Positions 2,192 through 46,190 of a stretch of 64,000 nt of DNA are shown here, one piece after another. This DNA comes from Cladosporium halotolerans. Its lineage: Eukaryota. The translations under genes and the position numbers were made by a program. Under the pieces are notes generated by a model, which did no database searches, had not been told where the DNA came from, and saw only the letters and a program-made list of their open reading frames with translations. The stretch is taken from contig NW_027191465.1 in the NCBI RefSeq assembly GCF_011745625.1, positions 434,001 through 498,000 of the forward strand, in the 5' to 3' direction. Position 1 is the first letter of the stretch; every line of letters starts with the position of its first letter.

Positions 2192-2480
2192 AATCAATCT
2201 CAACCCCCGATCCACATTCACATGTCTTGAGATGGTTGGGCTCGAGTACGTTGGTCAGCAGCTGAGCTCTGACAGGGCCCTTGTGGATTTAGGGTGTCAT
2301 GCATGGTAAGGTTCATCGAACAGATGGCCGGTAGTGGGACGGAGATGGTGATGAAACAAGATCTAGGAGTGACTTGCGAAATTGCTCGGAAGGCGTTGCT
2401 CAGTAGCTTGAAGGCATCTTTTGCACGCAATTCACAGCCCTGCGCAGGAGTATCTTTGCAAGAAGTCCATTTGTAGCACC

Positions 2481-8424: not shown

Positions 8425-9135
8425 TCCGATGTGAAAGTTGATGTGAAATTGACCAGTTTAGACTCCTCACATGCGACGGTCGGTCAAACATCAATGGCCA
8501 CGTGATCTGAGCGGCGAGGCGAAGGGTAGAGGACTTACACCATGTCCAATCGCGGATGGCAGTGATGTTTTCCGATCACTTCATTGCCCGCGCTCGGTGG
8601 GTGATTGCACCGCATTGGCGAATTCCATGACCCACAATGCGTCATGACGGTCCTGCATCTGTATGGGTCTCGGCAAAGTCTCGCAAGTGGGTGTATTCGG
8701 TGAGACTCTCATATGGATATCATCGAGCGGGTTCAGGTAGCCGACCTGTGAGTTGCAATGGCACGGACAGCACTAAGAACGTGCACCGCTGTGCTTAAGC
8801 TTTTAGCTCGGGGATATGGGCCCGAGAGATAGAGTTTGGATCTCGGAGGCCAATCCTTTCTTTACTAAAAGCGGTCGTTGCAACAAAAAACGATCTCTCA
8901 TAACCCGGTGGGCGGGCCCGCAGCGGGTCTCAACATGAGCGGTGGGAATGTCAGACGTATGCGCGTCTTATTGCTGCATGATCTGCGCTCAGAGCTTTGA
9001 GCATAGACAAAGTCAATAGCATGTCCCTGAAAAGCTTACTTCACCGCAGTCCCGCAAATCACATTCGCAGTGTCTAAGTGATATGTTGCAAGGGCTTAAT
9101 ACGGGCCTATTTTCATTCTGGTTCCACTCGCCCAA

Positions 9136-13267: not shown

Positions 13268-16200
13268 CTACTCAAGCTGGGCGCTCTTCTTGGTCTTACT
13301 GCGGCCAATGGCCTTCCAGAGTCCACGAGAGCCGGACTTGTCGGTCTTCGAGCTCTCCTTAGTCGTGGCCGAAATAGGCTCGGAGCCAGAGGGTGAATTC
13401 ATGTTCGAGCGCTGCGCAAGCGCGTGTTTGTGAAGCTTCTCCTGAAGGGCTTGGTTGTCAAGGGGAGCCGGCATCGGAGGAAGGGCGGTGTCGGGCTCGG
13501 TCGTCGAACCGCGGCGAGAGAATCGAGACCAGCGTCTGGAGGAGCGCTTGGAAGCGATCGGAGTCTCGGCGACGCCTGCTGCGACGTTACCGTTGGCATT
13601 GGCGCGTTTGTTGAGTTCTTCCTGCAGCATCTGGTTCTCTTTGGGGCCGGGCATGGGAGGTCTTTCGTTGTTGCCTACTGAGCTGCGCCTAGAGAATGAT
13701 AGGCGAGACCAGCGGCGGGAAGAGCGCTTGGATGCAAGTGGTGTCTCACTGTTGCCTTGTTTCTTAAGCTCATCGCGTAGCAGCTGTTGTTCGGCCGGAC
13801 CAGGCATGGGAGGGGCACTGTCGTCGGCGCCTGCAGAGGTACGTCTGTTGTGTCGAGACTGGCGCCTGGAGTGGCGTCTAACGCCACGAGATGAGATGCG
13901 GGACGACCTCTTGTTGCCGTTATCCTCGGCCTCAGTCTCCATTTCATCGTCCATTGCTTGTTCGTTGTTCAAAGCGAGCACGGCCAACTGGCCAAGGAAG
14001 GTAGGGTGCTCGAGGAGATCCTCGAGGCTCACGTTGTATTCGTCTTGGTGTAGCATGTACACAACCTTGCCGAGATCTAGGAGATCGCCGCCGAGCTCGA
14101 AGAAAGTGGAATGAAGTTCGAATCCGTCGCTGTCAGCGGAACCGTCGTCCTTCTGTTTCTGGGATTCAAGGCACTGGCTCCATGCATGTGTCAAAGCAGG
14201 AGAGTGGATGAGGAGGCTGTCAATCTTGATGCCCTTGAGACGCTCTCCGAGGAAGTCGCCGTCCGAGGGGCGGGCCAGTTCTTCGATTTGTTGAGCCGGC
14301 AATGAGGTCAGGGTGGTAGGCGAGGGCAGGGTAGCGTTGGAGCTGGTCGTCAAGCTTGAGATAGCCTCAATAGCCATGTTGAGAACACGCGTCGCGAATG
14401 GCAAATCGATCGGTCCCTTGTCGGAGTAGTGGAGCGACAGGTGGTACTTGCCCTCTTGGGCCAGAGGCGTAGAGACAAAGGTAAGATCTGACAGGTTGTC
14501 GACCACACCGGCGCCACCGATCCTGTAAGCTTCCTCGTCCAGCGTGATGTCACCCTCATAGTGAACATTCTGGTGGAACACGGATGTGGTAAAGTAGGTC
14601 CAGTTCGGCCAGTCCGTGCAGCGTTGAATGATCTCGCGGAAACCAAGGTTCTCGTAAGGCATGTTGGCAACCGATTGGTCCTGGATGTAACGGAGAAGGT
14701 CAAGTCCGTTCCAATTCTCACCAAATGCGACGCGCACGGGGATCATGTTGACACAAGGGCCGACCGCGGTCTCAATACCAGGCACAGATGCATTGCGGCC
14801 GTTGATGGTAAGGCCAAAGACGACGTCAGGCTGAGCAGAAATCTTGGCCAAAGTCATGGCCCAAGCAGCTTGAACAACAGTGGCGATGGTGATACTGCCC
14901 TTGCTACCCATGGAGATGTCGATGGTCTTGGCTACGTTGGTTGCGGAACCAACATGGCAGTAGGTGTTGGGTCCGTTGCGGCGAATGATCTCGGGCATCT
15001 TGGATCCCCTGAGCAGATTGGTGAAATGCTCGTAATGGTCCGGAGTAACGCTGCTGGACATGAGGCGCATGTGGCTGGAGAAGGAGGAAGTCTTGGGAAG
15101 CGTTCCGCCCTCGTAGCCCTGCTTGACAGCATCAAGGAGCTTCCAGAGGCACACGCCGTCGTACTGGGCGTGAGACATGCGGATCAAGATGCGGTGCAGG
15201 TTGGTGCCCGCCTTACGAGCGACGGCGAATTTGACAAATGGCTCGCCATGCTTCGGTGGGTGGTCGCGGTCTTTTTGCTGAAGGCTAGCGACAAAGGCGT
15301 CAAGATCCATCTCAGTGTCGTGGACGGCGAGGTCGACCTTCATCTTCTTGAGCACAACCTGGTAGAACTGACCCTCGGCGCAAACAAACACGGATCGGAG
15401 GATGTCGAAAGAGTCGAGAACACGCTTGCAAGCCTCGCGCAGACGACGGATATCCAGAGGACCGTGGCCTTCGAAGAAGAAGTAATTGAGCATCCACCTG
15501 GACTTGAACTCCTGCGCGGTGAGTGAGAACGCCTGGAAGTCGGTCACCGGAAGGACATCCGCGACGGCGCCCTTGAAGGTGCCGATCTGCGGGCAGATGC
15601 TGCGCTGGAGGAATTCGCTATCGAGTTGAACTGTCTCATAGACAGAGCGAGCACGTGGGCGTTCATATTGCTTCAGCTGCGCAGTTGGCTTCTCTTCGGG
15701 CGTCACGATGGTCGGCTTGCTGACTGGAGGAGCAACGACAGGTGCTGCTTTAGGCACATCAGAGTTGGCAGTGATGATACGAAGCATCTCCTCAAAGACA
15801 GGGCACTTGAAGATGTCTGACACGCGAAGAGCCATTTCTTGCTCGCGCGCGGCGCTGGCCAGCTTCATGGCTTTGATGCTGTCACCACCGAGACGGAAGA
15901 AGCTGTCGTCACGCTTGATGGTATCCGCGTCAACCTCTAAGATGTTCGCCCAGATGTTGCGGAGGTTGGGCTCGTAAACGGAGGATACATCCTTGTCTGC
16001 GGGTTCAACGGCCTTAGGAGGCTCAGTGTGAATGGCAAGACCCGCGAGAGAGTTCGGCAAGTTTTCTTCGCTTCTCGGAGGGGTCATGATCGTAGGCTGC
16101 ATCTGTCTCTGGGGCGTGAGAAGCGACGGCTGCATTGCAGACTTTGAGTTACCAGCGTTGCCCATCATCTGGCTGACAACGGCGTGGACGCGTTCATCGA

Positions 16201-19200
16201 TGAGGCTGTGCAAAGACTTGTGATCGAGCATGTCCACGCTTGGTGGCGGGGTGAGGACGCCTCTCAGTTGCGGCGTAGAAGGAGCAGACATCATGTCCGG
16301 CACCAACATTGGCGTTCCTGGAATCGGAGTCGGGACGCCGGGGGTGATGATACCAGATTCCTTCTCATCCTGGAGAGCGTTCTCGAATGTCTGAGAGATT
16401 GCGGCAGCGATAGCGTGTGCTCTGCTATCGGAGATCTTGTCGGACCAATATCTCAGCATGATACCCTCGTTATCCTTCGCTGTGATGACATTGACAGTCA
16501 TTGGGTACTCGCTTGGATCGTGAACCTCCTTAGCCGAGAAAGACAGAGTCTCAGCCTGGGAAGCGTCCGAAGGAATTTGGTTCTGAATAGAGAGCGTAGA
16601 GTTGAACAGCATCTGACCGTCCATGCCGAGGTAGTTCTGGATCTCTGCCAAAGAGGTTGCTTGGTGCGGCAGGCCTTCCAAGAAATCGTTCTGCACCTGG
16701 CGGAACAGGCTGCCGTAGTCCTGGCGTGAGGAAAGCTTGACGCGGCAGCAAAGCATGTTGATGAATACACCGACGGCGTCCTGAATATCAGTCACAGGAA
16801 CGTCACGGCCAGCGGAAAGGTAACCGAAGCAAACATCATCTTGTCCAGTGAGGGCGCTGAGGACAGTTGCCCATGTTGAAAGAGCGAGAGTGGCGAAGGT
16901 GACCGAGTCTCTCCTGCAAAGCGCCTGGAGTTCGTCGAAACGGTGGAAAGCGACCTTGAGGGAGTTCAGACGGCGAGTCTTGGTGAGATTTTGCGCGGTT
17001 GGAATGTGGCAAGCCTGGACATTGCGCAAGTGCCTGGCCCAATATTCGAGGCCAGTCATGTCCGAGCGGTTCTTGAGATACTGGACAAACTGCGCGTAGT
17101 CGGGGCCAGGGGTAGACGGGGTGAGCGAGTCGCCATAGGCGGCGGAAAAGTCGCGCAGGATGATGGAAAGAGATGCACCGTCGATCAAAGCATGATTGAG
17201 TTCCATCTTCATTTCAACTCCGCCAGTCGAGATAACACGGCAGATAGTGACGTGGTGAGGAATCTGCGGCGACCTCTGCTTGTTGATGTCGGAAAGGCGG
17301 ACGGTAGCGAGTTGCTTGGAAGCGGCGGAACAATCATTGCAGGCGATTGTTGTTGGCATTGCATTGACCTTCTTCAGTACGACCTGGTCGAATGTTCCGT
17401 TCTTGTAGTTGCTCTCGACGAAGATGGTCCTGAGAATCGGGTGACGGTCGACGACCTTTTGCCAAGCCGTTGCGAGCAGCTTCGTGTCAACTGCGGCTCC
17501 AGATTTATTCTCGTTGATCTTGAAGATGGCGTGGAACATGTAGTTGGACGGATCGCGGAGCTGACTTAGCAGGATACCCTCCTGCACAGGTGCAACCGGG
17601 TAAATGTTCTCGACGTCGGCTATACTCTTCACACCCATGCGTGGCAGAGTTCTCTCAACGAGCTGCTTCAGCTCCTTCGAAGACACCGGGAGTAGAGGGT
17701 AAGAAGCAGGAGTAATCTCGCTGGCCATCTCCTTGAACTTCGGAAGTGCGGCGCGGAGAGTAGCTTCAAAGCTGGAGATCCATTCGGCGATCTTGTCTTG
17801 ATTCTTCAGATTCTTGTTGAACGTGAAGGCAATCCTCAGCTTGTCTTTGATGACGATGGCGGATAGCTCAAAGAGAGCAAAGCGGGCGGTTCTGGATCCC
17901 ATATCGCCGTAGTCCGTCATCTCGCCTTCAGCGAAGACGTCGGCGTAATGTTGGAACAAGGAATCCGATCGCTCCAGTTGCTGGAGCTTGCCAAGGTAGT
18001 TGAACAAGATCTCGAACAATCCAGTGCGGCGCGAAAAATCGTTCATGTTCTTGGAGTCTTTCCTCAGCTCCTTCACCTGCTTGATTGTTTCCATGATGTC
18101 AGAGGAGCGTTTGATCTGGAGGGCTTTGACGGCTGTGAACCAGCCCACCGATTCTGACACGTCTTGAGTCGCTGATTGACGACCGTGACTCTCGTTCCAG
18201 ATGGTCGGATCAGCGAGGTTGGGGAAGACCTGGGTGAAGGACTGGAATGCGACTGCAAGAAGCAGGTCCAAGGGCTCGATCTGGGCAGACGATTGTACGC
18301 CGTCGAGCAAGGAGGCGGTGGTCTTCTCGTCGACGGAGAATCCTTGAGTCTTGACTTGACCATAAGTGTTCTCGAAGCCACCTACTCCCCAGTAATCGGC
18401 GTTGGGGAGGCCGTCGGGGATCTGCACGGTCGGGCTCTCCTTCTCGCCTGGCGATTGAGAGCCGCACCAGGCCTGGAAGGAGAGCGGGATCTCGGAGGCG
18501 ATGGTACCGGTGTGGAGGTACTCTTCAAGTTCTTGGAGCACAACGCGCCAAGAAACCATGTCAATGCACAAATGGTTGGCCACCAGAAACAGAACCTGGT
18601 CGGTTCCAGGCGCATCGAACATGTCGGCAACGACGATCGGACCCTTCTCGGGATCGGGTGCGCGCTGCGACTCTCCCATCTTCAACTTGATCTGTTCACG
18701 ATCGCTCGTCTCATGGACGTTGAAGGCGTACGATGAATCAATGTCCTAAGCGCTTGGTTAGCACTAATCGCTTGGTGACAATTTGCCGCTGGGGACTTAC
18801 CCTCGTAGTTCGCTGCTTCCAAGTTCCATCAGCATCTTTCGAAAACCTCGCCCTCAACATCCCATGTCGCAGGACAATCGTCTTCAGAGCCTCCACGACC
18901 TTAGAGCTATCGATCTTCCTTGCCAGACGCACAGTAATGCTCTGGTTGAATCGGCTGGTGCCCTTGTGTCCGTTGACCGCGTGCTGGAAGTACAAGTCCT
19001 GGATAGGAGAAAGCGAGAAGCTTGCGCCAGAGACAGCCCTAGAGCGTCCAGTAGGCTGCTTCTTCGACGTCTCGGCGAGAGTGGATCGCTTCGCGAGCTC
19101 TTCGATCGAGTCCGTCTGGATGATGTCTTGCAGACGGACGTTGAGGCCTTGCTTGCGGGCCTTGGACACCACGGCCATGCCGGTGATACTATCGCCACCT

Positions 19201-22200
19201 AGAAGAAAGACATGTTAGCTTGCAAGGACGCTGAATGGCTGAATCTCAGAATCTTACCCAAGCTGAGGAAAGAGCGATCTGACTCCATACTCGACGGCTC
19301 AACGTTCAGCACCTGAGCGCAGACATCCCTCAGGATATCAACAGCAGTCGCGCCGCCAGCCTTCTCCTTCGTCTCAGGAGCAGGCACCTTGCCGCGCTTA
19401 ATATCGTCGTAGTCCTTCATGATGCGCTCGTAGTTCGGCTTGTCGACGTTCTCGATCCAAGACGTGATCTGCTTGCGGTCAATCTTGCCCGAGACCAGCA
19501 TAGGCAGCGACTGCATGACGACCCAGGCCTGGGGAACCATGTAGATTGGCAGTTGCTTCTCGAGCGAGGCCTGGACTTCCGGCAGCTTGGCGGCGTGCAT
19601 GACGGAGGGCTCGACGAGCTGGCAGTCGCCGGCGGACTTCAGGGACTTGTCACCGGCGTTGACGGCGAGGATGGCGACGAGGCGCTTCTTGATCAGGCCG
19701 GTCTTGGGGAGGAGGACAATCGCGTGGCGGATGCTGTCCATTTGGCTCAGGCGGGACTCGATCTCGCCGAGCTCCATTCTCTGGCCATGCAGTTTGACCT
19801 GGTGGTCTTTGCGGCCCAGACACTCGATGGCGCCGTTCGGATAGTAGCGGACCAGGTCGCCGGTCTTGTAGATGCGGCTGGCACTCGTGGTAGGGAAGGA
19901 GCTAGCCCAACGGGGGTTCTCGATGAACTCGGCGTTGGTCTTTGCAGGGTTGTTGAGGTACTCGCGAGCGAGAGGACGGCCTGAGAGCGCCAGTTCACCC
20001 ACCGAGCCAACGGGCATCAAGCGGTCGTGGTCATCGGGGTCAACGACCCACGTAGAGGTGGACTTGATACCATGACCAATGCAGGCGGGCTCGCTCTTCG
20101 GCGAGATCTTGGCCAAGGTCGCGAAAACTGCGGTCTCAGTGGGCCCGTAGCCGTTAATGACCTCTACATGAGGCGTCCACTTGTTGATAACCTCTGCAGA
20201 GATCATCTCGCCACCGCAGACCAAGGTCTTGAGGGATGGCACGCTTGTCGGCTCGATGATGGAAGCGACCGAAGGCGTGCAGAAAGTCCAGTGAATGCCC
20301 ATAGCGTTCATGGCTCCAGCGACATCGTTCAGTCTGTCTTCCTCGCTAGGGATGCAGACGCATCCACCGAAGATGAGCGTTCCCCAAATTTCCATGACGG
20401 CGGCATCGAAAGTCAACGAAGCGAAGTGGAACGCGCGAGTGCCGCGACCAAGGTGAATGACCGGGGCGAAAGCGCTAACACTCGTGACAAAAGAGGCATG
20501 CTCGGTGACAATACCCTTGGGTTTGCCAGTGCTGCCAGAAGTGAAGAGCGCGTAAGCCATGTTGGTGCTGCTGGAGCGGTTGAGCGGGCGCTTGCTGGGA
20601 GACTTCATGGAGTCGAACACGCTGCGATCGATGGCGAGAACCGTTCCGACCTTCCTGGAGTACCTCTGGCTATACTTGGGCAGACAAATGACGAACTCGG
20701 CTCCAACGTCGGCGATGATCTCCTCGTGCCTGCTCGCTGGGTGAGCCGGGTCAAGCGGCACGTATGCGCCGCCAGCGGCGAGCACACCCAAAATTGCAAC
20801 GACCATGTAGGCCGACTTGTCCATACAGACAGGGACAAACATCTCCTTTTTGAGGCCGAGAGAGATGAGGTAGTGGGCGAAGACCGCTGCGTGATCGCAC
20901 ATCTCGCGGTAGGAGAGGTTCCCGTCCCAGGCGCAGATTGCATCTGCGTCTGGCTGAGAGGCGCACTGCTCGTAAACGAGGTCTTGAATGGTCTTCTCGA
21001 TCGGGTCAATGCGATCAGTGTTCCACTCCAGAATCTGCTGCTTGTCTGCTGGGCTGACAAGGTCGATGTTGCCCACGACGAGATCGGAGCTCTTGGGAAG
21101 CTCAACGAGTTGCTTCAAGATGAAGTTGAAGCGAGCAATCAGACCATTGACTTGGCTGGCTGCGATTACGTGGTCGTCATGATGAGCAGTGGTCTTGATC
21201 TGCGATCCAGCAACCTTGCACTCAACCACCAAGGGGTGAGTGAAGAACTCCTCACCAGCCTGAACGTCGTTGAACTCCCACATGGACTTCTCCAACGGCT
21301 GGTCGTCGGCCTGGACAACCAGCAGGTTCTGGAACTCGCAGGCAGCCGACGTGCTCGTTGCAAGGCGGCGGATACGCTGAACGCCTGCGTGCTGGTGAGG
21401 AATGACATCGATCGTCTGCTGTTGAATCTTCTGCAGGTAGGAGGTGATCGAGGTTTGCTTGTCGACTTGGACGCGCGTGGGGACGGTCGTGAGGACAGGT
21501 CCAGCCATGTTCGTGACACCGCGCAGGGCAATGTTGCGAGCCATCAGAGTCTCTCCGAAGCAGACGTCAGTCGACTCGGATTGTTCGGCTATGGTAAGAG
21601 CCCAAGCGCCACGGATCATGACAGGGAGCGTGACATCGGTGTTGGAGATGTTGGAGATCTCCATGTTGTTGTACTGGCGAGATCCCGCAGCGATCTGGCG
21701 GGAGGTATCCTTGACACGAGGGAAAGCGGGCGTCTTGAAATCCGCGAGGTAGGACTTCCAGAACTCGTCTGAAGCGGTGTTGTCGCTCTTGCTCAAGTAG
21801 TCGATGAAGAAGCTGTACGGCGTGGGCTGGTGCTCTGGCGCAGCGAGATCCATGTAGTGTTCTTGACAGTGCTGCAACATCAGACCAATGCTAAAGCCGT
21901 CGTAGGCAGCATGGTGCAGCGACCAAGCAAAGAAGCGCTCGGAGCCGTCTTCAACGATAGCGTAGTCAGTGAGCACATCACCCTCGGTCGAGGGCAGCGC
22001 AGGCACGCTGTCAGAGTGCTTCGGCACCGTCTTCTGATACTTCCACGCAATGGGTGCCTCACGAAGGACAACCTGGCAGAACCCAGCATCAGCCGTGTGG
22101 ACAATGCGAGTCCTCAGAATCGGAAGGTCATTGACAGTCTTCTGCCAAGCGGCCTTGAACTTCGCAAGATCGATCTGGGGCGCGAGGCGGTAGATCGAGC

Positions 22201-25200
22201 GAACGACGTAGGCTCCGGGCTTGCTGGTCGAAGATGTGATGAGGCCAGCCTGGACCGGGCTGCAAGGGTAGACGTCCTCGATCGCTTCGACTTCGACGCC
22301 GCAAACCTCAGAAGCATCGGCCAGGACCTCCTCGCGAGGAGCGTCGGCGGGGATGAGCGAGAACGGCTCAATGGTGGCGGGCTTGATGGTTTGCAGCGGG
22401 TTGTTCCTCTTGCAAGCCGCACACATCTCGGCCAAACCAGGATGTGTGAAAATATCGGCCACAGTGAGCGAGAGGCCACTAGCCTGAGCAGCGCTCACGA
22501 GGTTCATTGCTGCGAAGGAGTCGCCACCGAGAGCGAAGAAGGTGTCGCTGTCGGTCACAGAGCCAGGCGTAAGTCGCATGACGGTCTCCCACAACTCTCT
22601 CATCTGGGGTTCGAGACCGGTCTTTGGGGCGTCGGTGGTCGCGCTGGCAGTGCTTGCGTAAGGTCTCATTTGTTCTTTCGTCAGAGAAGCCGCCATGGTC
22701 TGGAGTCCGCGACGGTCCAACTTGGCAGAGGTGGTACGGGGGAGGTAGCGGACGGGGTAGAAGAACGTCGGCACCATGTAGAGCGGGAGATGGTGTGGCA
22801 GACCCTCACGGAGGCTCTCGACGAGGGCAGATCTTGCTGGTGTCATGGGCAGGAGTACTCCGTCCGCAGCCTCGCCAGACTCAACAGGGCTGACGAAGAA
22901 AGCAGCCAGACCAGCGGCCATCGTGTTTTCCTTCGGCTTGACGATATCGACAAGCACATCAGCATTGGCCAAGACAGAACTGTGGTGCTCGATCTCCTCC
23001 AGCTCCACACGCTGGCCCTTGAGCTTGACCTGAGTGTCGTTCCTCGTCAAGAAAGTCAACGACCCAGTCGGGCTGAACCTCGCCAGGTCACCAGTGCGGT
23101 ACATGCGCTGGCGCTCCGGCGTCGGGTCCTGGCGGAAGATGGGATGCAGGCGTACGTCGCGCGACCACGCGGGATCGCGGATGAAGGAGTGCTTGGTCTT
23201 CTCGTCGTTGTTGAGGTATCCGCGGCCGACGTTGGGGCCTTCCATCACGAGCTCGCCGACGGCGCCACGGGGCATGAGCTTGTCGACGTTCTCCGGGTCG
23301 GTGATCCACGCGCGTCCGCATTGCGGGAAACCGATGTCGGTGCCGTCGGTGTTGACGAGGTTGCCCTTTCCGTCGGACTTCAGGCTGACGGTAGCGATAA
23401 CTGTGGTCTCCGACGGGCCAAAGGCGTTGACGAGATGGCGGCTCTTCCATTGCTCGATGAAAGCGGCCGACATCTTCTCGCCTCCAGAGATGAGGTACTG
23501 AAGAGTAGGGACCGAAGCCGGGTTGATGGTAGCGAAGAGGGTGGGCACACACGACATGAGCGTCGCACCAGACCGGTTGATCGCGCCCGCGACGTCGTTC
23601 ATGCGGTCGCTCTCGCTAGGCATGCAGATGCAGGCGCCGTTAAGGAGGGTGAAAAAGACGTCCATGACGGAGACGTCGAACGTAAATGCCGAGAATTGGA
23701 AGACACGCGCGTTGTCGTTGAAGCCAAGGTGGGCCCAGTTCGCGGCAGAGACGGTGAGAGCAGTGTGCTCGACGACGGTTGCCTTGGGGGTGCCTGTTGT
23801 ACCGGAAGTGAAAACGGCGTACGCAGGGTCGGTGGGCAGGGTGTCGACGACTGTGTGAGCGAGAGGCTCCGGCGCATTCTCGATGTCTTCGTTCTCAACG
23901 GCGATAGCCACGTCGGAAATGCGGGACGCAATGTCAAGATGAGCAGCCGAGCAGAGTACGAGAGGTGCATTCAGCTGACGAACGAGGGTCTGCAGGCGCT
24001 CTTCGCCATGCGTAGGGTCGAGGGAGACGAACGCGCCTCCGGCTTGCATGACAGACAGCTGAGCGACAACGGCCCACATGGACTTGTCGAACAGGCAAGC
24101 AACGAATACATTGGGACCAACGCCGAGCATGCGCAGCTTCTGAGAAAATTTCGTGGTGAGCGCCAGAAGCTCCGAGTAGTCAAGGCTACCATCCCAGGCG
24201 CTGACTGCAGGCGCTGACGGGTGTTGAAGAGCGCGCTCTTCGATAATCGTGTGTGCACAGCGCTCATCAGTCTGCGGGACTGGCGCGCTCCACTGCAGGT
24301 ACTGGCGGCAAGCCTTGTCGTCGACGAAGTCCAAGTCTCCGATCGACTGAAGCGCCTTCATCGGGAGTTGGGTGAGAACGTGCAGGAAGCAGTCAGTGAT
24401 CGACTCGACGTAGTCCCTCGCGAGGTTCTTGGAGTAGTGCAGCTTGACATGCGCAGAACGGCGAGTGAGCGGGCCAGGGTTCAGCAGGATGGCGCTGAAG
24501 CTGCCGCCGGACAAGAGGCGGTTGATAGTGGCTGTGCTGGAGGCCTCTTCTCCTGATTGAGCGCAGACGACAGTGTTAAAGGGGATGTCCTCTGTGGCCT
24601 CGGGCTGCATGGCTTTCGTGGCCGAGATCCATGCCTTGGAGCGGTTGGCCGAATCGATCTTCAACTGCTGCAGCGCCTGCAGAATCGGTGTGGTGTCATC
24701 AGTGTTCACCTTGCGGTTCTCCAGGCGGTGATTCTCGCGCGACCTGTCCAGAACGCCGAAGCACGTCTCAGGAACGCCGGAGTAGAGACGAAGCACGATC
24801 GCCCAGACAAACTGGTAGACCAGCGCGGCGTCGAAGTCGTTCTCCTTGCAGAACTGCAAGAGCTTCGCGGGCTGCTGCACGGCCAAGTGGACGAACGAGT
24901 GGACTTCGGTCTCTTCGGTCGCAGGCTCAGGATCGCTGATCGTCGGCAGGAGGCAGGGTTCGACGCCAGCGACGTCGTTCACCCACGGCGTGGTGTCTTG
25001 GTCTTCGAAGAACGACTTCTCCTCGTCGCCCATCTGGCGCAAGCGAGAGACAATCTGCTGGTGCTCGGAGTCACGGATGACGTCCTCAATCTTCTCCACG
25101 TACAGCTTGGCGATGAGGTCTGCCTGGGAGTTGGAGAGGCATTCGGTCCAGTGGTTCAGCTCGATGGTGGCGGAAGAATCAGAGGCCTCGACGTTGACAT

Positions 25201-28200
25201 AGACAGCAGTCTCGGCCGGATCATGAATGTAGCCCTTCTGGACGAACTCCACTGACTGGTGATCGCTGGCATCCTGCTGCGGTGGGAGCTTCCTGTAAGA
25301 AACGCCGCTGTTGAACAGCGAGACATTGGCCATCTTCATCTGATGAAGCACGTCGATCAACGAACACGCGCGATGCGGCAGCGACTGAGTGAAATCGTTC
25401 TGCGTCTGCTGAAGGACATCGAAGAGAGTGGCGTTGGCGTCCGCGCTGGGGAGCTTGATGCGGCAGACGTTCAGGTTCATGACTGGGCCGATCATGGCGT
25501 CAACTCCTTCGACCGGGGCATCGCGAAGCGAAGTCGTGTAGGCGAAGCATACGTCGTCAGACTGGGTCAGGAAGGAAAGAAGGAGACCCCAGGCGACGTT
25601 GAAGACAGTCGACTGGGTAATGCCGGCAGTCTCGCAGAAGCGGTGGAGACGGTCGAAGTCGCTGAACTCGACGCGCGAGGTGTGGATCGAAGTTCTGTTG
25701 GTCAGACTGTTGCCCTTGGGGTTGAGAGGGATGTGGCAGGGGCGGGTGTTGTCGAGATAGGAGGTCCAGAAGTCCATCGCTTCCGCGGACGACTGCTTCT
25801 GGAGGTGCTTCGCGAACTCCTTGAACTCCGGCTTGGGTCCGTCGACGAACTTCTCCGCACAAGCTTCCCTGAGGTCGTTCAAGAGGATGGAGATCGAGGC
25901 GCCATCCATAGCAGCGTGGTTCATTTCCAGTCTGCAGAAAACGGCTCCAGACTTCGTAGCAGTGCAGACGGAGAAGCGGTGAGAGTCGTGGTAAGGCACG
26001 ATGTCGCGGCTGGCGAAAGTGGCCATGACTTGTTCCTCATCCTCGCATGTCAGAAGAGCAGGCTGCAGATATCCGATGTCCTTCAGCACAACCTGTCCAA
26101 AGGGCGTAGACGGCGTGAGCCTGTCAACAAAGATTGTTCGGAGCATCGAGTGGTGCGCGATGAGCTTAGACCAGGCAGCAAGAATGCGGAAGACAGTGTT
26201 CTTCTCAGAGCCCAGACCGCGAACCTCGAAAGTGGTGTGCACGGCGTAGAGCAGAGGGTTCCGGCACCGGCTGAGAAGAATACCCTGCTGCATGCGCGTA
26301 CAGGGGTACATATCCTCGACGGCGTGCAGAGACGTGATCCCGTACCTGGGCATGATACCGGACTCGATCTGCTCCAGCTGATCGCTGCTCATCTTGAGCA
26401 TCGGGAAATCGCTGACGGTCTTGGTGGGAGGAGCCGCGAGGAGCTGGTGAGGAAGCTGCTCGAGGAGGGCTTGACAGTGTTTCAGCCACACCTGCACCTG
26501 GTCTTTGTGCTTGATAGACCTTCCGTAGGAGAAGTTGAAGCGCAGCTGGCCCTCAATAACGGCAGCAGAGATCTCGAAGAGCGCAAAGCGAGGGGTGTCG
26601 CGACCAAAATCAGCGGCACCACCGCCCTCACGAGTCTCGCCAACCATGGTGTCTGCAAGCTGGAATAGGCCCTTCTGGTTCTGCAGGTCTCTATTCTGGC
26701 CCAAGTAGTTAAACGACATCTCCATAGGAACCGGGTGAGGGAACTTATTGCGGCCAGCAGCTGAGAGTGTACGGTGCGCAAAGAAAGCACGGCCATTATC
26801 AGACGCGCGGCGGCGAGAGTCCTTCACGTGCGCGACGGTCTGCAGCAGGTCCTGGTCGGCAGACAGTCCTGGCACCCAGATGGGGTATAGGGTCGTGAAC
26901 CAGCCGACTGTGCGCGAAATGTCGATCGAGGGATCCCACGGCTCGCGTCCATGACCCTCGTTGTTGATCACGGGCACGGGACCGCCAGGGAATGCCTGCG
27001 CGAAAGAATGGAGCATACACGCCAGGAGCAGATCGACGGTTTCGGTGTGCAGGCTCTCGTGGCAGCCCGTCAGGAGAAGCGATGTGCTCTCCTGGCTGAC
27101 TTCGAAAGCGGAGATCTCGACTTCTCCATAGCTGATCGATTCGTCGACGCCCCAGAAGTTGAAGTTGTGCGGCGGCGCGACTTCGAGCTCGTTCTTAACC
27201 TCCTCGTCCAGCTCCGCTTGCTCCGTCTGCTTGGCGGACCACATTTGGAAGGGCATCGAGGCGGTCGAAGACTTGGTAGGCTCTTGGATGAGTTCTTCCA
27301 AGTCTTCAAGGATGAGGCGGAACGAAACGATGTCGACGACGAGATGGTGGCCAACCAGAGAAAGAATCTGGCTCTGACCGGGGACATTAATCAGATCGAC
27401 AGAAAGCAGAGGTCCAACAAAGCAGTCGATCGACTGCTGGCTGGTGGAAATGATGCCTTCGACCTCACCTTCACTCTCAACGTCCTGGTGGTTCAAGCGG
27501 TAAGAGTTATCGACGTCCTGAGTAATGCGCTGCTGCATCTTGCGCTCAGGTCCCTCATGCGAGAAACGCGCGCGGAGCATGCTGTGGCGAGTGACCAGGG
27601 CTTCAATGGCTGTGCGGAGCTGGGCCTCACTGATCGTTTCGTGGACGCGAGTCTGGATGCTCTGGTTGAAGTATCCCTCGTGCTCGGCGCGAACGAGCGA
27701 GTGCAGGTACTGGATGGGCGAGAGATCGAACTTCTCCTCGATCTTCTCTTCGTAGAACGTCGGGGATTGGATCGCCGACGTGTGCAGAGCCAGATCCCTA
27801 ATGGAGTGACGGCGCAGGATATCTTGCACGGTCAACCCAAGACCGGCCTTCTTGCACAAACTCGTGCACGTCATGGCAGTCAAAGAGTCGCCGCCGAGTT
27901 TCAGGAAGTTCTCCGTCAACTTCAGGCGGTGGACTGGGATGTTCAGGACGCGACTCCATGCCTCCGCCAGGAGCCTCTCGGTCTCGTTGGCAGGCGTGTA
28001 CTGGGACTCGTCGAGCGGCCCGTCGCCCTCGACTTCGAACTGCGGGTCCTCCTCCATCTCCTCCAGCCACTTCGCAGCTTTCTTGCGATCAAGCTTGCCA
28101 GACGTGAGCAGCGGCATAGACTCCACGCCCAGCCAGACGCCAGGAACCATGTACGTCGGCAGCACGGCGCCAATCCGCTGCCGCAGCCCCACAACCCTCT

Positions 28201-30614
28201 GTTCCGACTCCGTCTCCAGCACCAGCTCGCGCGCCTCGGTGTGGTTCGCGCCCGCGAAGCAGAAAATCGTCACGAGCTTTCCCTTCGCATAGCCGGCGCG
28301 CGGCACATGCACGAGCGCAAGCTGCACGTCGACGTCGGCCGTCAGGCGGCTCTCGATCTCGCCGAGCTCGACGCGCTGGCCGTGCAGCTTGACCTGCGTG
28401 TCTTTCCTGCCGATGTAGGTCAGTGTTCCCAGAGAGGAGTTGTACCTTACCAAGTCGCCACTCTTGTAGAAGCGGCGCTTCTCGCCGGCCTCGTTGCTGT
28501 CGGTCGCCCAGTTGGGGGCGTAGATGAAGGCTTCGGCGGTCTTGTCCGGGTTGTGCAGGTAGCCGCGGGCGAGCGAGGGGCCTTCGACGAGCATTTCGCC
28601 GACGGCGCCTGCAGGGAGGTGTTAGTGGGGGGTCCGAATGAGATTGATTAGAGGCTGGAGCCGCTTACCGACGGGCATCATTTTGTGGTGGTCGTCTGCG
28701 GACACAATCCAACACTTGCCTCCGACTGGAAGGCCGATGTCTTTGACGTCCGTCTCGCGCGTCACGTTGGGATTACCAGCCGAAGTGATGCTCGTTTCCG
28801 TAGGCCCAAAGCCGTTCACGAGGTTGAGGTGACACCAGGTGTCCCTTTGGTTGACTGACATAGCTTCGCCAGCCAGAGTGACCGTGTGCACGTTGGGAAC
28901 CATAACAGGAGTCAAAAACTCGATCACCGACGGCGTCAGTCCGAGGTAATTGACGTTCAAGCTGTTGATGGCGCCAGCGAGGTCGTTGACGCGAGATTCT
29001 TCGCTGGGGATGCACACGGTTCCGCCGTTCATGAGCAAGCTGAGGATGTCAACCAGACTGGCGTCGAACGTGTGCGCGGCGAACTGCAGAACGCGACATT
29101 CTGGCGTCAACCGCAAAGCATCTGTGTGAGCGGAACAGCTGGAGGCGAAGGCTCGGTGTTCCACGACTGTTCCTTTGGGCTCTCCGGTCGAGCCGGAAGT
29201 GAAGATGATGTAGGCGGCATTGCCGGGCGTGACCTCGTTTTTGAGCGTCGAGGAAAAGCACTTCGCCAGCAGGTCATCATCGATAGCAATTACAGGTTGT
29301 TCTGTCGCGAGTGCAACCTTCGATTGTTGCGCTGATGAAGAAAGCACAATTTTGGCTCCGACCTTCTCAATGAGGGAGCGGAGACGCGATTCTGGGTGCG
29401 AAGGGTCTAAGGGGACGAACGCGCCGCCCGCTTTCAGCACGGAATAGACTGCGATAGTGTACCATTTCTGAGATAGAAAGTTAGCTCGGGAGGCTCCGTT
29501 GATGGGTATCCGCTGCCTATTCGAAAGTTTGCAGGACAAAGGCTCTCCAAGTCGAGAATTGATCTTGAAGGTGTAGAGCGGAGGGTAGCACCCTGCTCTT
29601 CCCCATAAATGAGAGAAACAATAGTCAGAAGTCCTCATTTGATGAATTTCTTGAAATCTCTTTCTTTCAAAACCGTTTCAATAGCTCGCAAAAGAGCCGC
29701 CTCGTGCCTGCAAACTTTCGGAGGATAAGCGTTGGAAGATCGACATGACGAACCGTTTTCTCAAAGCAAAGCGGAACCATTGTCTCAGGTCCAACGCCCC
29801 GGCTTTGTAAGTAGCTCGCGATGCGAGAAGTAATCGAGTCGAGTTCCCCGAATGTGAAAACACCGTCCCACGCACAAATGGCTTCCTTTACGGGCCACTT
29901 GCGGCATTGTTTCTGGACGATTTCGTGGATGCAGCTGTCGCGGGTCGGCGGCATGGAAGTGTTCCACTTCGCGACGCGCCTGCTGTCCTGTGGGGTGAAG
30001 TAGTCGAGCGCGCCGATTTGGCGGTCGTCGAAAGCGAGCAGTTGGCTGATGATCTGGCTCAGCACTTGAGCAATGCAGGTGACGTGTCCGGTGGACATCT
30101 CATCGCGCCAATATTCGAGGTTGAGTGCGGGGACGCCGAAGACGTCCTCGATGCAGAAACGGATGCGACAGTTTTCGGGGATTGCGGATGCGAAGTCGGT
30201 AGAGAAGTCGATGTCTTCCTTCTCGGATTGCCGGAGGAAGACTGTGTTGTATGTGGCGAAATCGAGCTGGGTGGTCGGAGAGGCAGAGATCTCTCTGCTC
30301 CGTAGCTCGACGACTTGGTCTTCGTCTGATATGCTCAGTGTCACAATGTGGTTCTGAATGTGTGCGTCGTCACCGGCGTGCTCCCTCTGGTAGCCGAAGC
30401 ATAATTCGTCGGAACCAGTGTAGCATCGGAGCACCACTGCCCAGGCTTTGATGAGCAGGGCATCGATGGCAGCAGTGCTTTGGTAAGAAATTCTGAGGAG
30501 GTCGAGATCATGTTCGGTCAACGATACGGGCAAGGATGCGGGTGTCCTGGGAGTAGTGCTGCTGGAAGCAGTGTTGGGGAAAGAAGGTAAGCAGCACTGT
30601 ACTGATCGCTCCAT
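13268..30614 (-). CDS. Non-ribosomal peptide synthetase, Pes1/HcpA-like; C*-A-T-E-C-C*-A-T-C-A-T-E-C-T-C-T*; ~5,628 aa; introns 29468-29753, 28609-28668, 19199-19257, 18746-18800
   Basis: Three A domains (YIIFTSGSTGEPKG, YAVFTSGTTGTPKA, YALFTSGSTGKPKG, each with GP(T/S)E, GDL and K(L/I)DR). T motifs GGDS x4 and GGDL x1. E domains HHLVVD/EGHGRE/RTVGWFT and NHLCID/ESHGR/SVGWFT. C domains NHAAMDG, HHAAYDG, NHALIDG, SHAQYDG. The four introns give a 16,887-nt in-frame CDS. The 5' end is uncertain because a splice acceptor lies just upstream of the ATG. Confidence 0.95.
13420..13915 (-). repeat. Three imperfect ~55-aa coding repeats in the NRPS C-terminal tail
   Basis: Units of KRSSR(RWSR)..RRxS..PPMP(G/A)P..Q.L.(D/E)(E/K)L.K occur three times; ETP(L/I)ASKRSSRRWSR occurs twice. 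Confidence 0.8.
29522..29720. repeat. 14-bp perfect inverted repeat inside the first NRPS coding-region intron
   Basis: CGAAAGTTTGCAGG at 29522-29535 and CCTGCAAACTTTCG at 29707-29720, with further imperfect pairing inward. Confidence 0.8.
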
Positions 30615-32170
30615 GTCGGCGGCTGCGTGATTAGGATGCAAATGTATGCAATTAATAATAGTGTAGTAATGGCGTTAAGGGTATGGGGAATACATGGACG
30701 AGCGAACAAGCAGACGAGGGCTTTCACGAGCGACGAAGAGATCGAGGTCGTATGAAAGACGTAGGAAGGTCGGAAGGGCGAGCTCCGTCTAGATCAACGC
30801 CGATCGAAGAGATGCATCTGCCATGGACTGCAAGGGTGCTCGAGTTCTCAAATTGCTCGAACCGCGCGCGCCTTCGCTGGTGGCACACCCTCTCGCACCC
30901 GGCGCTGCCGGGCCCAGCATCCAATTGCAGCGTGGCCTCCCGTGCCTCCATCCTTACGCTGCACGGAGGTATTGAGGAGCTCCACCGCCAGCAAACGACG
31001 GTCCTTGCGCCAAGCTACAGTAGTCGCTCTGGAGGTCTGAATAATGGCTACCGGCGAGGAGCGGGCGGCGCCCGGCTGGGGCGCAGGCGACTCGGGCCGC
31101 GGGGCGCTAGCGCGGGAACACGGGCGGGCCGCCGACGGTGAAGGCGTTAGGGCGGCGCCAACGCCGCATGCAGCAGTAGCAGTGGCTCAAGTTCGGGCTG
31201 ACGTGTGACGATTCTGGACGCTGCCACCGGCCTGTGCTCCGAACCCCTGTCGTTAATCGCTTGTACACTTTCCTATGTGGGCGATTAGAGCCCGCCCCTG
31301 CGCGCATCGATCTGCGAGGCGCCGACTCGCTACCGGCAGAGCAGAACCTCCTGCTGGCGCTAAGGCGGTTCCCGGCTTCCGCGTGCCACCTCGAGTTTGT
31401 TCAGACGTCGGGCCTTGTGCCGTGGACATACATGTCAGCGACCAGCATGCGCGCCAGCGTGCAAGCAGAGCGCTGCAGTGGCAACGTCGCCTTGCCTCCG
31501 CGACTCGCACGGGCGAGCGTTCACAACCGCCGCGTGAAGCTTGATCGGCGCTTCACGTTTCACACCTCGATCTCGACGGGAAATTTCATCTGGCGCTCAA
31601 CGCCCCCGGCGGCGGTGCGCGCGTGGACGACCCACACGATCGACAGGCACTTGGGACGCTCGGGCGTTTTCTTGCGCAACCCTCCGCCATGCCACCACGC
31701 ACGCCCACGCCGTGCACCGCATAGCAGGCATGCCAATTTGCCATCCCGCGCCCCAACCGCACCGTCCGCTTGTCACTGCTGTGCCACCCCGGCTTAGCAG
31801 CCCCACTAGGAGCATTGTTGGAGCTAGCGCTGCCTCCTACGTCGGAAGAATGGGGTTTGTGTACATCACACGTCCCACTATTCATGTCAAATAGCTCTAT
31901 CCCCTGACACGGTCTCTTAGCCGCCACCCCGGCCTTGGTAGTACGTTGATCAGTGGCTCGCCCTCACCCGGCATGTCGGTTCTCGCCTCCGTTGCGATGT
32001 TGCCGTCTGCTTGAGCCGAAGCTGGTGTCTTCCGTCGCGTCACTCCCTCTGTTGCGATTACATTCCATTACGCCAGTCTGGACCTTCGACGATCGATGGG
32101 GTGAACGGGGTCGGCAACACTCCCACCACAACTCGCACCTCTTGACCGTCCTCGAGGCGTGATACCAGCC

Positions 32171-35100
32171 ATGGCCGACTGCGTCCGCATCGACAACACC
32201 GTGCAGCTGTACGCGCATGAGTGCCGCGGCGGCTTCGACTTCCCTCTGCTTTTCGAAGAATCGATCCTCATTCTCTTGCCGGTGTTGTTGACCGTATTAA
32301 TCGCTGCCGTTCGCTTCCTTTCTTTACTCAAGTCACCCGTTACAACAGCATCAGCATGGATCGCGGCTCCCAAGGCTGTGCGTTTCGCCTGCTTCCTCTC
32401 TCTAGTATCTCGCTGACTTTGGTCACAGTTCTGCTGGACTTGCGTCGCGGTCTTCTATTTTGCCCTGGCTGGAATCTGGGCAACTCCAGGCTCGACTAGC
32501 ACCAAAGCATCCGTCGCCGCAAACGCAGTCGCTGGCGTCAGCTGCCTCTTTCTCGGACTCGTCTCTTTCTTTGAACACACACGTTCTGTTCGGCCTTCAC
32601 TCCTTCACCAATTGTATCTTTTTGTCTCCATCCTTTGCGACATCGCTTGCGTTCGCACGCTGTGGCTTCGCCAGGACTACTCTGCGGTGTCCCACCGCAT
32701 TGCCATTCTCTACACTCTTGTGTTTGTCGTCAAGATTCTCGCGTTTGTGTTCGAATCTTTGCCGAAACAACAGATCCCTGGATCTCCTTACCATGATGCC
32801 AGCCCCGAAGCAAGGGCTGACATGGTCAATCGCGCCCTGTTCTGGTGGATCAACCCGATCTTCCTTCGTGGCTACTCCAATACCCTCGATGTTGGCGACC
32901 TGCCCGTTCTAGACAACTCTCTGAAAGCCAGAAACAGTCACCACATGCTTTCTCAGACATGGGACGCAAACAAAGCCAAAGGAAAGGCGTCTCTCCTAGG
33001 CACAGCTATCACGACACTCAAGTGGCCTCTTCTCTCCGCTGCGCCGGCGCGACTCGCGCTGATTGGGTTCACGTTCGCCCAGCCGGTATTGCTCAAACGC
33101 GCTCTTGCCGTTTCAAGCAATGAGCCCACAGAGTACAACAACAACGTCGGGTATGCCCTCATCGGTGCTTACTTCCTCGTCTACACAGGCATGGCTGTCT
33201 CTCTGAGTCAGCACCAGCACCGCGCTTACCGAGCGATCACTATGCTTCGTGGAGGACTCGTGTCGATGATTTACCGCAAGGCGACGGGGTTGTCGCTCAC
33301 AGATGCCGACCCAGCTAACTCCGTCACTCTTATGAGTGCGGATGTTGAACGTATCGTCCAAGGCTGGTCTACGATCACGGACATGGTTGCGAATCCCATC
33401 GAAATTGGCCTCGCCATCTTCATGTTGCAACAGGAGCTCGGCGTCGCCGTTGCAGTGAACGTCGGTGTGATGGTCTTCGCCCTCCTTGCTTCTCTCGTCG
33501 CCATGGGCGGCATCGGACAGCATCAAGCCAACTGGCTGAAGGCGATTGAGAAGCGCCTCTCTTCAACCGGAAGCATGCTAAGCTCACTTAAGGGCATCAA
33601 GATGATGGGACTTGAGAACGTCCTCATGAACTCACTGCACAGCCTTCGAATGGATGAGATGCGCGACTCTGCAATGTTCAGAAAGCTCCTCGTGGTCAAC
33701 ATGGCTTTCGCATGGCTAGCGCGCGTCTTCTCTCCCATCGCGACCATCGGCACGTTCGTTGCCCTTTCGAACGGCGCCATCTCTACTTCCAAAATCTACA
33801 CGTCGCTCTCTATCTTTGCCCTTGGAACGGACCCGTTGCTGACCCTGGTCATGGCTCTCATGCAGTTTGCCGCGTCCGCTGGATCCTTCGCCCGCATTGA
33901 GGAATTTTTGAACAAGGACGTTGTGCAGCCAACTCGCGCTGCTTCCTCATCTGGTCCGAAAGCCAAGAAGGGTCACCTCAGCGCCACCGCAGTCTCCGTC
34001 AGCGGTGTCTCCGAATACAACGACATCGAGCTTGAGTCCAAGCCTCTAAGATCAGAAGACAGCCAATTGACTTTGTCTGGTTCCGACGCACTGAACGTGC
34101 ACAAAGCCAGCTTCGGTTGGGACACCGAGAAAGAGCCAATCCTCAAGGAGGTCTCCGCGAGCATCGCTCCCGGCACTTTCACCATGCTCATCGGTCCCTC
34201 TGGGTCTGGCAAGTCGACTCTGCTGCAAGCTTTCCTGGGCGAGGTTCCTTGCATGGGTGGCTCGTTGAACGCTCACGTCGACTCTATGGCGTATTGCTCC
34301 CAGTCCCCGTGGCACATGAACGTCAGCATCCGTGACAGTATCACTGCAATGCTTGACTACGATGCGAAGTGGTACACAACAGTGCTGCGCGCATGCGCTC
34401 TTGACAAGGATCTCGAACAGATCTCCGCCGGCGACGACACTATCATCGGTAGCGGCGGCACTGCGCTCAGTGGAGGTCAAAGTCAGCGTATCGCCCTCGC
34501 GCGAGCAATCTATTCCAGGAAGTCTGTCATCATGATGGACGACCCTTTCAGTGGATTGGATGCTTCCACCGAAAACCAGATCTTCCACAACCTCCTTGGA
34601 ACCAACGGCTTGCTCCGCGAAATTGGCACAACCGTCATCGTCGCGTCCTCTTCGGTCAAGCGCGTTCCGTACGCTGATCAGATCATTGTCCTTGATGCCG
34701 AAGGCCACGTTACCGAGAACGGTGACTTTGAGACTCTCGACAAGAAGGGTGGCTACGTCGCTTCTTTCGCTTTGAATGTCCCTGACTGGAACTATAACCC
34801 TGTCGTTGCCGTGATCCCTACTGTTCGCGACATTCCGTTGAAAAAGGAAGAAGCCGTCAAGGAGCACGACAAGTCTCGCCAGGAGGGAGACACAGCTACG
34901 TACCTTTACTACGTTAAATCCGTCGGCTGGACCGCCACCATGATCTTCATTGTCGCCATGGCTGGATTCGTCTTCTGTCTGTCGTTCCCGAGTATCTGGC
35001 TCAAGTGGTGGGCGACCTCATCTGATCCTGCCGGGCAAGAGAACTACTACATGGGCATTTATGCAATGCTTGGTTTTATTGCCATGATTGCTCTCCTTGC

Positions 35101-36670
35101 TGGTTCCTACCAGCTCATCGTCACTATGGTGCCCATCTCCGGTGCCAACTTTCACCGCATCCTTCTTCAGACGACTCTCGGCGCCAAAATGTCTTTCCTT
35201 TCGGTCACGGACACCGGCAGTATCCTTAATCGCTTTAGTCAGGACCTGCAGCTCATCGACATGGATCTTCCTGTCGCAGCCATCAACGTCGTAGCGACGG
35301 GTTTCCTCTGTCTGGCTCAGCTGATCCTCGTCGGTGTCTCCGCAGGCTACGCAGCCATTTCCTTCCCTTTCCTTTTCATTTTCCTCTACTGCATTCAGAG
35401 AGTCTACCTCCGCACGTCACGACAGCTTCGTCTCCTCGACATCGAGGCCAAGGCTCCTCTGTTCTCTCATTTCACCGACACCCTTAAAGGTCTCCCCTCC
35501 ATCCGAGCTTTCGGCTGGCAGACTCCCATGGAAGAGAAGAACTTCGAACTTCTCGAGTACTCCCAGCGACCCTTCTACATGATGTACGCGATCCAGCGCT
35601 GGCTCTCTCTTACACTCGACCTGATGGTCGCCGGCATCGCGGTCATCCTGATGATCCTCGTCGCCTGCCTGGATAGCACCGACACCGCGTACATCGGCGT
35701 GGCGCTCTACAACGTCGTCCTTTTCACGCAGAGCATCAAGATGCTGATCCAGTTCTGGACGAACCTCGAGACGCACATCGGCTCCATCGCCCGCATCAAG
35801 GAGTACCAGGAGAAGACGCCGCGCGAGGAGCAGACCGTCGCCAGCAACTACACCCTGCCGACCACCTGGCCGCAGCAGGGCAAGATCGAGTTCGACAGGA
35901 TCTCCGCCGGCTACTCGCAGACGCACCTGGCCATCAAGGACCTCTCGCTGGACATCCAGCCGGGCTCCAAGATCGGCCTCTGCGGTCGTACAGGAAGGTA
36001 AGCTACACTAATTAATCCTCGTCACATCCACTGAATGGCCACTAACACCCCTCCCAGCGGCAAATCCTCCCTCGCCATGACCCTCTTCCGCATGCTCGAT
36101 CTCTCCGCCGGCCGCATCCTCATCGATGGGCTCGACATCTCCACACTCCCCCGCCACGACATCCGCTCGCGCATCAATTCCATCACGCAAGACGGCGTCT
36201 TCATCCAGGGCTCCGTGCGCGCCAACATCGACCCGCGCGGCATCCATTCCACCGACGCCATCTGCGACGCGCTCGAGACCGTCTCCCTCCTAGAGCTCGT
36301 TGAAGAAAAGGGCGCCGGCGACCTCGAGTTCGACATCGCCGAGCTGCACCTCTCGCAGGGCCAGAAGCAGCTGTTCTGCTTGGCGCGCGCGCTGCTGAAC
36401 CCGAGCCAGGTGCTCGTGCTGGACGAGGCGACGAGCACGGTCGACGAGCACACGGACGAGGTCATGCAGAAGGTCATCAGGCAGAACTTCGGCGGGCAGA
36501 CGATCATCACCGTCGCGCACAGGCTGGAGAGTATCCTGGACCACGACACGGTCGTGGTGCTGGACGGGGGCGAGATCGTCGAGCGGGGCGATCCGTACGA
36601 GTTGTTGGCGAGGGGCGAGGAGACGGAGTTCGGGCGGTTGTGGAAGTTTTTGCAGGCGGAGTCGACGTGA
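32171..36670 (+). CDS. ABCC (MRP-like) ABC transporter, ~1,462 aa, introns 32378-32428 and 35998-36057
   Basis: N-terminal CRGGFDF.LLFEESIL. NBD1: GPSGSGKS, LSGGQ, MMDD. NBD2: GRTG-S-GKS across the intron, LSQGQ, VLDE, VAHRL. Two TM blocks. Divergent from the NRPS. Confidence 0.95.
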
Positions 36671-46162: not shown

Positions 46163-46190
46163 GTTGGATGCTACCACCTTTAGATAGTAG

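Follow-up and report, generated by a model that had tools for sequence, protein, structure and literature searches.

A Cladosporium synthetase of the Pes1/HcpA branch with three adenylation domains and four intact carriers

How does a nonribosomal peptide synthetase (NRPS) that carries three adenylation (A) domains fill four carriers? The question is raised by a gene in a 64,000-nucleotide stretch of Cladosporium halotolerans DNA (assembly GCF_011745625.1, contig NW_027191465.1, positions 434,001 to 498,000), which we call the window. On its minus strand, from an ATG at 30614 to a stop at 13268, five exons encode 5628 amino acids (aa) with no internal stop, and the translation equals the NCBI record of this Dothideomycete (P0194) at all 5628 positions. 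Pfam searches on 16 segments and purpose-built hidden Markov models (HMMs) give the layout C*-A1-T1-E-C2-C*-A2-T2-C3-A3-T3-E-C4-T4-CT-T*, where C, T and E are condensation, carrier and epimerase domains, CT is the terminal cyclising condensation domain, and asterisks mark partial or Ser-less domains (Table 1). Three A domains, all with complete core motifs, thus face four Ser-bearing carriers (GGDS in T1 to T4), while the terminal T reads GGDL. A preliminary description had read the same domain order, with three A domains and an A-less yet Ser-bearing T4 (FFRLGGDS), and both statements stood once the spliced protein, the motifs and a six-frame scan were examined. Judged by its sequence, the gene is a real, intact and streamlined member of a known family, the Pes1/HcpA branch of the water-repellent peptide (WARP) synthetases. 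Our answer, which we consider likely, is that it has lost the vestigial fourth A domain (A4) of its relatives, and that A3 would load both T3 and T4 on the way to a fungisporin-like cyclic tetrapeptide.

A hidden fourth A domain, in any frame or intron, was ruled out by a six-frame A-domain HMM scan of the whole window, which returned only A1 (as three exon pieces), A2 and A3. Since the identical HMM scores the degenerate A4 of Pes1 at about 446 bits on average, an A4 of that kind would have shown up. The 247 aa between C2 and A2, the internal C*, occupy the position of the pseudo-A4 and C remnants of Pes1/HcpA, and were modelled as a C-terminal C lobe (residues 177-441 of the SrfA-C C domain; Z 19.6, rmsd 4.0, 216 aligned), leaving no space for an A domain there. 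A degenerate A was rejected for this segment on the same fold, in a model of C*-A2-T2 whose global confidence is low (predicted template modelling score, pTM, 0.36) and which is uninformative on domain contacts, and a search of solved-structure sequences returned only a C-domain match, a weak one (E 0.37). The published HcpA layout with four A domains (A1-T-E-C-A4-A2-T-C-A3-T-E-C-T-C-T) is therefore not matched, as the orphan A4 behind the first C is missing.

The family features place the enzyme with the known synthetases. WARP clusters are defined by an NRPS and ABC transporter gene pair, and their synthetases have 3 to 6 modules (bioRxiv 10.64898/2026.07.13.738209). Hydrophobic cyclic D/L peptides and wettable knockouts also mark the family; on this point the Cladosporium enzyme offers its pocket codes. 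The Cladosporium enzyme has three A-bearing modules, epimerases behind T1 and T3 and hence in alternate modules, an A-less C-terminal C-T-C tridomain (C4-T4-CT), and a divergent ABC transporter gene upstream (32171-36670), whose best named match (51%) is an A. hiratsukae protein with the locus number next after that species' Pes1. In an A-domain tree, A1, A2 and A3 cluster within the Pes1/HcpA sub-lineage (support 0.998-1.0), and the C-terminal region groups there as well (support 100*). The family assignment of the preliminary description, to Pes1/HcpA/NlsA, is borne out by these clades, the architecture and the neighbouring transporter. HcpA (Penicillium chrysogenum/rubens), Pes1 (Aspergillus fumigatus) and NlsA/NidA (A. 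nidulans), the fungisporin/nidulanin synthetases, have orthologous A1, A2 and A3 clades and share with our enzyme the epimerases of modules 1 and 3, the terminal C-T-CT-T* and the adjacent transporter. Full domains are 46-62% identical to records of this type, the comparison having used Pes1-named or same-genus records (P0298, P0312, P0338) in place of the exact HcpA or NlsA entries. The Cladosporium enzyme differs in lacking the orphan A4 and one of the two internal C remnants seen in A. fumigatus and A. niger, in its A1 code, in its repeat-rich C-terminal tail, and in its Dothideomycete host. Passages of a genome paper on Cladosporium limoniforme list the fungisporin cluster among antiSMASH matches and give no architecture (PMC12843665).

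The preliminary description had supposed that the known enzymes carry a displaced fourth A domain, proposed to load T4. Comparison speaks against that view. With the columns anchored on the familiar positions and roles of A-domain motifs, the orphan A4 of all 60 full-length four-A enzymes fails to match the P-loop, the YGP[TS]E and the A8 core motif, the three patterns used; the A5 Pro is found in 0/60 and the A10 Lys in 43/60 (8 gaps), while A2 (59/59) and A3 (60/60) are invariant at all 15 columns checked. Shorter records agree (34 of them), the mutual identity of A4 being 50% against 70% and 74%. Leu takes the place of the catalytic A10 Lys in the A4 of P0298, an A. fumigatus record, and in several Aspergillus records A4 ends short of its C-terminal subdomain. 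The code extraction recovers the A1 and A3 codes as published and, for A4 and A2 of A. niger, the first seven code positions, so the domains compared are those named by Ali et al. The fourth A domain of Pes1/HcpA thus looks catalytically dead, and these enzymes probably also operate with three active A domains.

Where, then, did A4 come from? Against six five-A enzymes, the Cladosporium A1, A2 and A3 correspond to ancestral A1, A4 and A5. The nearest counterpart of the Pes1/HcpA A4 is ancestral A2, and the internal C remnants pair with ancestral C2 and C3, so that these parts read as leftovers of lost modules 2 and 3; by this comparison, A4 never moved out of the last module. Fusarium NRPS4 (fusahexin) and the other five-A WARP synthetases, which keep five intact A domains and are about 35-44% identical to the Cladosporium enzyme, share its terminal A-T-E-C-T-C unit and differ by retaining the two modules that it lacks. 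Among 119 homologues newly returned by a full-length search (from the best 120 of 832 matches), many with five intact A domains, 111 end in A-T-E-C-T-C, with the Ser of T kept in 111/111; 7 end after the C of the terminal unit and 1 has another layout. The A-less last carrier is, on this evidence from alignment, an ancestral, family-wide trait, and with an A4 that looks dead in the relatives it leaves the idea of a different assembly logic unsupported. What emerges is a stepwise series of loss in an NRPS: five A domains; three with a pseudo-A and C remnants; three with one remnant; and three alone.

The three-A form proved not to be unique to Cladosporium. Across 119 related, partly redundant Pes1-lineage sequences spanning the region, 91 have a pseudo-A4, 24 have C* only and 3 have neither; one (P0006, A. 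undulatus) was dropped as a three-A candidate, because its gene model has no A2 and what looked like the second A groups with the A4 domains. A4 is accordingly absent in 27, which include the uncertain A. nanangensis record P0070, whose model has other gaps. The named taxa are Cladosporium spp., Penicilliopsis zonata, Monascus purpureus, Pseudogymnoascus australis (a fragment), Aspergillus flavus and A. bombycis, and the orthologues outside Cladosporium are uncharacterised. The internal C* is kept in P. zonata, M. purpureus and P. australis and gone from A. flavus and A. bombycis, which lie on a separate branch. On that branch A. hancockii and A. alliaceus have A4, so A4 was lost at least twice. 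Metagenome records P0008-P0013, cut at the N-terminus and outside the Pes1 lineage, were left out of the three-A count. A literature search, covering mostly listings and chiefly journals outside subscription, turned up no characterised three-A form, no report of fungisporin from Cladosporium or Monascus, and no paper calling A4 degenerate by its motifs. Passages of PMC6298953, PMC7074149, PMC5381763, PMC6208954, PMC4490527, PMC8788816 and PMC2823734 name no product of a three-A enzyme, and those on aspergitide (PMC4490527) gave no link.

How might T4 be loaded? Ali et al. (2014, PMC4041764) favoured a trans-acting A4 and gave loading of both peptidyl carriers PCP3 and PCP4 by A3 as an alternative, and in the structures shown there the two L residues of fungisporin differ while residue 4 shares the class of residue 3. 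The difference between the L residues excludes A2 as the source of residue 4, and A3 alone fits once A4 is discounted. The conserved three-A form, with splicing in close relatives, and the family-wide decay of A4 favour A3 re-use among these two models, a choice open since 2014. In the proposed cycle, A1 would load T1 and E1 turn the residue to D; A2 would load T2; A3 would charge T3 with Val/Ile, epimerised by E3, and T4 with a second Val/Ile; C4 would couple the residues on T3 and T4, and CT would cyclise the chain. There is precedent for such re-use: SidC A3 loads downstream A-less T domains in vitro (PMC10192304). This ferrichrome synthetase, in which one A serves downstream A-less C-T units, belongs to another NRPS subfamily and, unlike our enzyme, has no E domains and makes a siderophore. 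The residues of fusahexin exceed its A domains by one, for which module re-use is proposed (PMC10967133; bioRxiv 10.64898/2026.07.13.738209), and the latter source attributes the extra residue to the C-terminal C-T-C tridomain. We therefore see no new assembly principle here. Of the loading routes raised in the preliminary description, re-use of an A domain stands and a trans-acting A found no candidate. The 127-aa C4-T4 linker is modelled as mostly disordered, which would give T4 reach; the model of C4-T4-CT has a pTM of 0.37. Within this otherwise variable linker (15971-16351) most of the 24 family members aligned share an amphipathic helix of the L..LID.RV..II.QM type, which is weak in those from Fusarium and Stachybotrys. 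The helix may serve in docking; it appears in the model, where no reliable contact is predicted for it.

The pocket codes bear on the product. The A3 code equals that of HcpA, and the A2 code is one position off that of a P. digitatum record (DVMSIGAVIK vs DVMSIGAVVK); tandem mass spectrometry has led to the annotation of fungisporin in P. digitatum (PMC7885104). A fungisporin-like tetrapeptide, cyclo(D-X-L-aromatic-D-Val-L-Val), is thus predicted, where a new peptide scaffold had been suspected. For comparison, Pes1 makes cyclo(D-Tyr-Tyr-D-Val-Val), on knockout evidence (bioRxiv 10.64898/2026.07.13.738209), even though the A. fumigatus record P0298 lacks the A10 Lys of A4. The neighbouring ABC transporter would export the peptide, whose role would lie in surface hydrophobicity. 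An unreported WARP is thereby predicted in Cladosporium and Monascus, and the three-A enzyme offers a natural deletion, and a smaller protein, for testing the question of HcpA A4.

Several points weigh against this reading. The sources found hold neither a product nor an adenylation or loading assay for any three-A enzyme, and the inactivity of A4 is read from its motifs. The A1 code differs from the A1 of HcpA and Pes1 at several positions, which makes residue 1 uncertain. A4 is kept, at about 50% mutual identity, by the 91 pseudo-A4 sequences counted above, so that it may still have some function, for example a structural one. The sequences counted are related and partly redundant and hence not independent events. 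The Apiospora data do not support iteration by the last module (bioRxiv 10.64898/2026.07.13.738209). Finally, the A3 and A4 codes are near-identical in two Fusarium five-A records, which fits Leu-Leu better than the published Thr-Pro and would make A3 or A4, in place of the last A, the supplier of the last T. Among the Fusarium five-A records P0291, P0294 and P0016, near-identical A3/A4 codes accompany an unusual A2 code, DN.D/AG..NK; we take the pocket codes of these enzymes to be of Leu, Ala or Orn type, and the published module-to-residue register of fusahexin may be shifted.

Those Fusarium codes permit a register that would charge the last T with the substrate of the penultimate A, and the Cladosporium A2 is the orthologue of that A domain. 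Loading of T4 by A2, giving cyclo(D-X-L-Y-D-Val-L-Y), is the best of the alternatives and still an unlikely one, because the enzyme nests in the Pes1/HcpA lineage, where the differing L residues (Phe and Val; PMC4041764) exclude A2 re-use. Slightly less plausible again is that T4 is never aminoacylated and serves as a relay or holding site for a tripeptide, leading to a cyclic tripeptide or oligomer. Only three A domains are present, and among Cladosporium T4 is less conserved (73-80%) than T1 (88-95%), as such a role would allow; C4, however, is 83-85% conserved with its His motif kept, and relatives that share the terminal unit yield one residue above their count of intact A domains: Pes1/HcpA set four residues against three such domains, and fusahexin six against five.

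The main model of Ali et al., carried over as a separate trans-acting A that substitutes for the lost A4, we regard as highly improbable. Their preference for it (PMC4041764) speaks for it, and the C. halotolerans genome is a 691-contig draft, so that A-domain searches, which gave no candidate, are lower bounds. The neighbouring open reading frames scanned hold no A domain, the best non-self genome match to A3 reaches 38% and sits in an A-T-C-partial A-T-C gene, the other loci examined have C-A-T or A-T layouts and bear no relation to A4, and A4 itself looks dead. The A-T-C-partial A-T-C gene (locus L001, G000:C580) has the layout described for NPS6-type siderophore synthetases.

That the gene is a decaying, productless relic is just as improbable: some of its parts (two C*, T*) are degenerate, and the literature searched held no metabolite report, but its 5628-aa frame is open, all checked catalytic motifs are intact, its full domains are 72-95% identical to those of three other Cladosporium proteins, contigs of close relatives are spliced, and the single-nucleotide polymorphisms (SNPs) listed are mostly synonymous. 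A3 and CT rank among the most conserved domains; within Cladosporium A3 reaches 88-91%, ahead of the other A domains, and CT stands at 90%. The splice evidence comes from 4 of 23 runs compared, guessed to be RNA though on record as such in no case, and derived from close relatives of this strain: contigs of X1 leave out introns 1 and 4, with CT..AC at the ends, and have a joint that fits intron 3; intron 4 is also left out in X7, while skipping of intron 2 was seen in none of the contigs and X6 covers the 3' part only. Run X3 shows intron-internal indels and no intron joint, as DNA would; a low-depth X3 contig also omits 356 bases within C2 (window 25923-26280), with ends not of splice type, perhaps another strain or an assembly artefact. 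Of 40 SNPs listed, a subset biased to the 3' end with 1365 further SNPs outside it, 36 are coding and 29 of those synonymous. No sign of silence or relaxed selection appeared. In the C-terminal tail (13271-13957, minus strand) a unit PPMPGP...SKRSSRRWSR is repeated in two to three copies; it is 61-71% conserved in other members of the genus and mostly missing outside it, and the X1 contig carries it without a break.

The origin of the gene raises a further question. A 52-row tree from the last A to CT, with rows taken from the top matches among 1020 candidates scored, joins Cladosporium to P. zonata and Monascus (100*) and places them within the Pes1 clade of Eurotiomycetes, apart from 11 other Dothideomycete sequences, and a 22-row IQ-TREE run concurs. 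A1, A2 and A3 all give the same grouping, joined by the two A domains that the Pseudogymnoascus fragment contains. An approximately unbiased (AU) test, run under LG+G4 without mixture and on a group named after the first tree, rejects a clade of Cladosporium with Mytilinidion, Plenodomus and Lentithecium (p 0.00048), which puts the enzyme outside the Dothideomycete NPS4/AbNPS2 clade (Pleosporales, Mytilinidiales NPS4-type). Searches of the C. halotolerans genome, again lower bounds, showed no second family member. The trees suggest horizontal transfer from Aspergillaceae, a possible gene transfer between fungal classes; old paralogy with losses is the alternative. The boldest version of our account, which we hold only tentatively and would not quite lean towards, is that the A4 of HcpA/Pes1 is a dead remnant of a lost module, that all fungisporin synthetases operate on three active A domains, of which A3 serves two carriers, and that Cladosporium, among the commonest airborne moulds, acquired its fully streamlined NRPS together with the ABC exporter by horizontal transfer, from a Monascus/Penicilliopsis-like member of the Aspergillaceae, and makes its water-repellent peptide with it.

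Table 1. Domains, exons and introns of the Cladosporium halotolerans synthetase and the adjacent transporter gene, in window positions
Feature	Position	Strand	Basis or remark
C*, N-terminal partial condensation domain	29988..30614	-	weak C-HMM match, 19 bits; found in Pes1-lineage homologues
A1, containing introns 1 and 2; all core motifs kept; code DAVGTAGITK	28049..29987	-	HMM and motifs
T1, LGGDS	27785..27976	-	Pfam and motif
E1 epimerase, HHLVVDIVSF	26381..27739	-	HMM and motif
C2, condensation domain behind E1, NHAAMDG	25055..26317	-	Pfam and motif
C*, C-terminal lobe without catalytic His motif; ancestral C3 remnant	24314..25054	-	Pfam, comparison, model
A2, code DVMSIGAVIK; orthologue of A4 of five-A enzymes	22676..24313	-	code extraction, comparison
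T2, LGGDS	22418..22609	-	Pfam and motif
C3, HHAAYDG	21083..22279	-	Pfam and motif
A3, code DAMFVGGVFK (Val/Ile)	19439..21046	-	code equals published HcpA A3
T3, LGGDS, interrupted by intron 3	19089..19339	-	motif
E3 epimerase, NHLCIDM, interrupted by intron 4	17675..19028	-	HMM and motif
C4, NHALIDG	16352..17611	-	Pfam and motif
C4-T4 linker, 127 aa	15971..16351	-	low confidence in model bar one helix
T4, A-less carrier, FFRLGGDS, intact Ser (codon ~15880)	15779..15970	-	Pfam and motif
CT, terminal cyclising condensation domain, SHAQYDG	14327..15562	-	Pfam and motif
T*, Ser-less carrier, GGDL	13970..14167	-	Pfam and motif
NRPS exons	30614-29754, 29467-28669, 28608-19258, 19198-18801, 18745-13268	-	spliced frame
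NRPS introns 1-4	29753-29468, 28668-28609, 19257-19199, 18800-18746	-	GT-AG, CTRAC branch points
Divergent ABC-C transporter, Pes1-cluster exporter orthologue	32171..36670	+	best named match; start codon and exon limits inferred

Around the synthetase, the intergenic region towards the transporter (30615-32170) is GC-rich, reaching 64.5% in 31001-32000 against about 55% around it. A phenol hydroxylase-type flavin monooxygenase gene (11111-13075, plus strand) is convergent, with about 190 bp between its end and the stop of the NRPS. Further out lie, at 386-3674 and 6982-8457, a divergent cytochrome P450 gene pair with a DUF1254/DUF1214 gene close by, and, at 38605-47225, a row of genes for a fungal transcription factor, a PLP-dependent enzyme, a beta-lactamase-family hydrolase, an amino-acid permease and an MFS transporter, which possibly form a small catabolic cluster.

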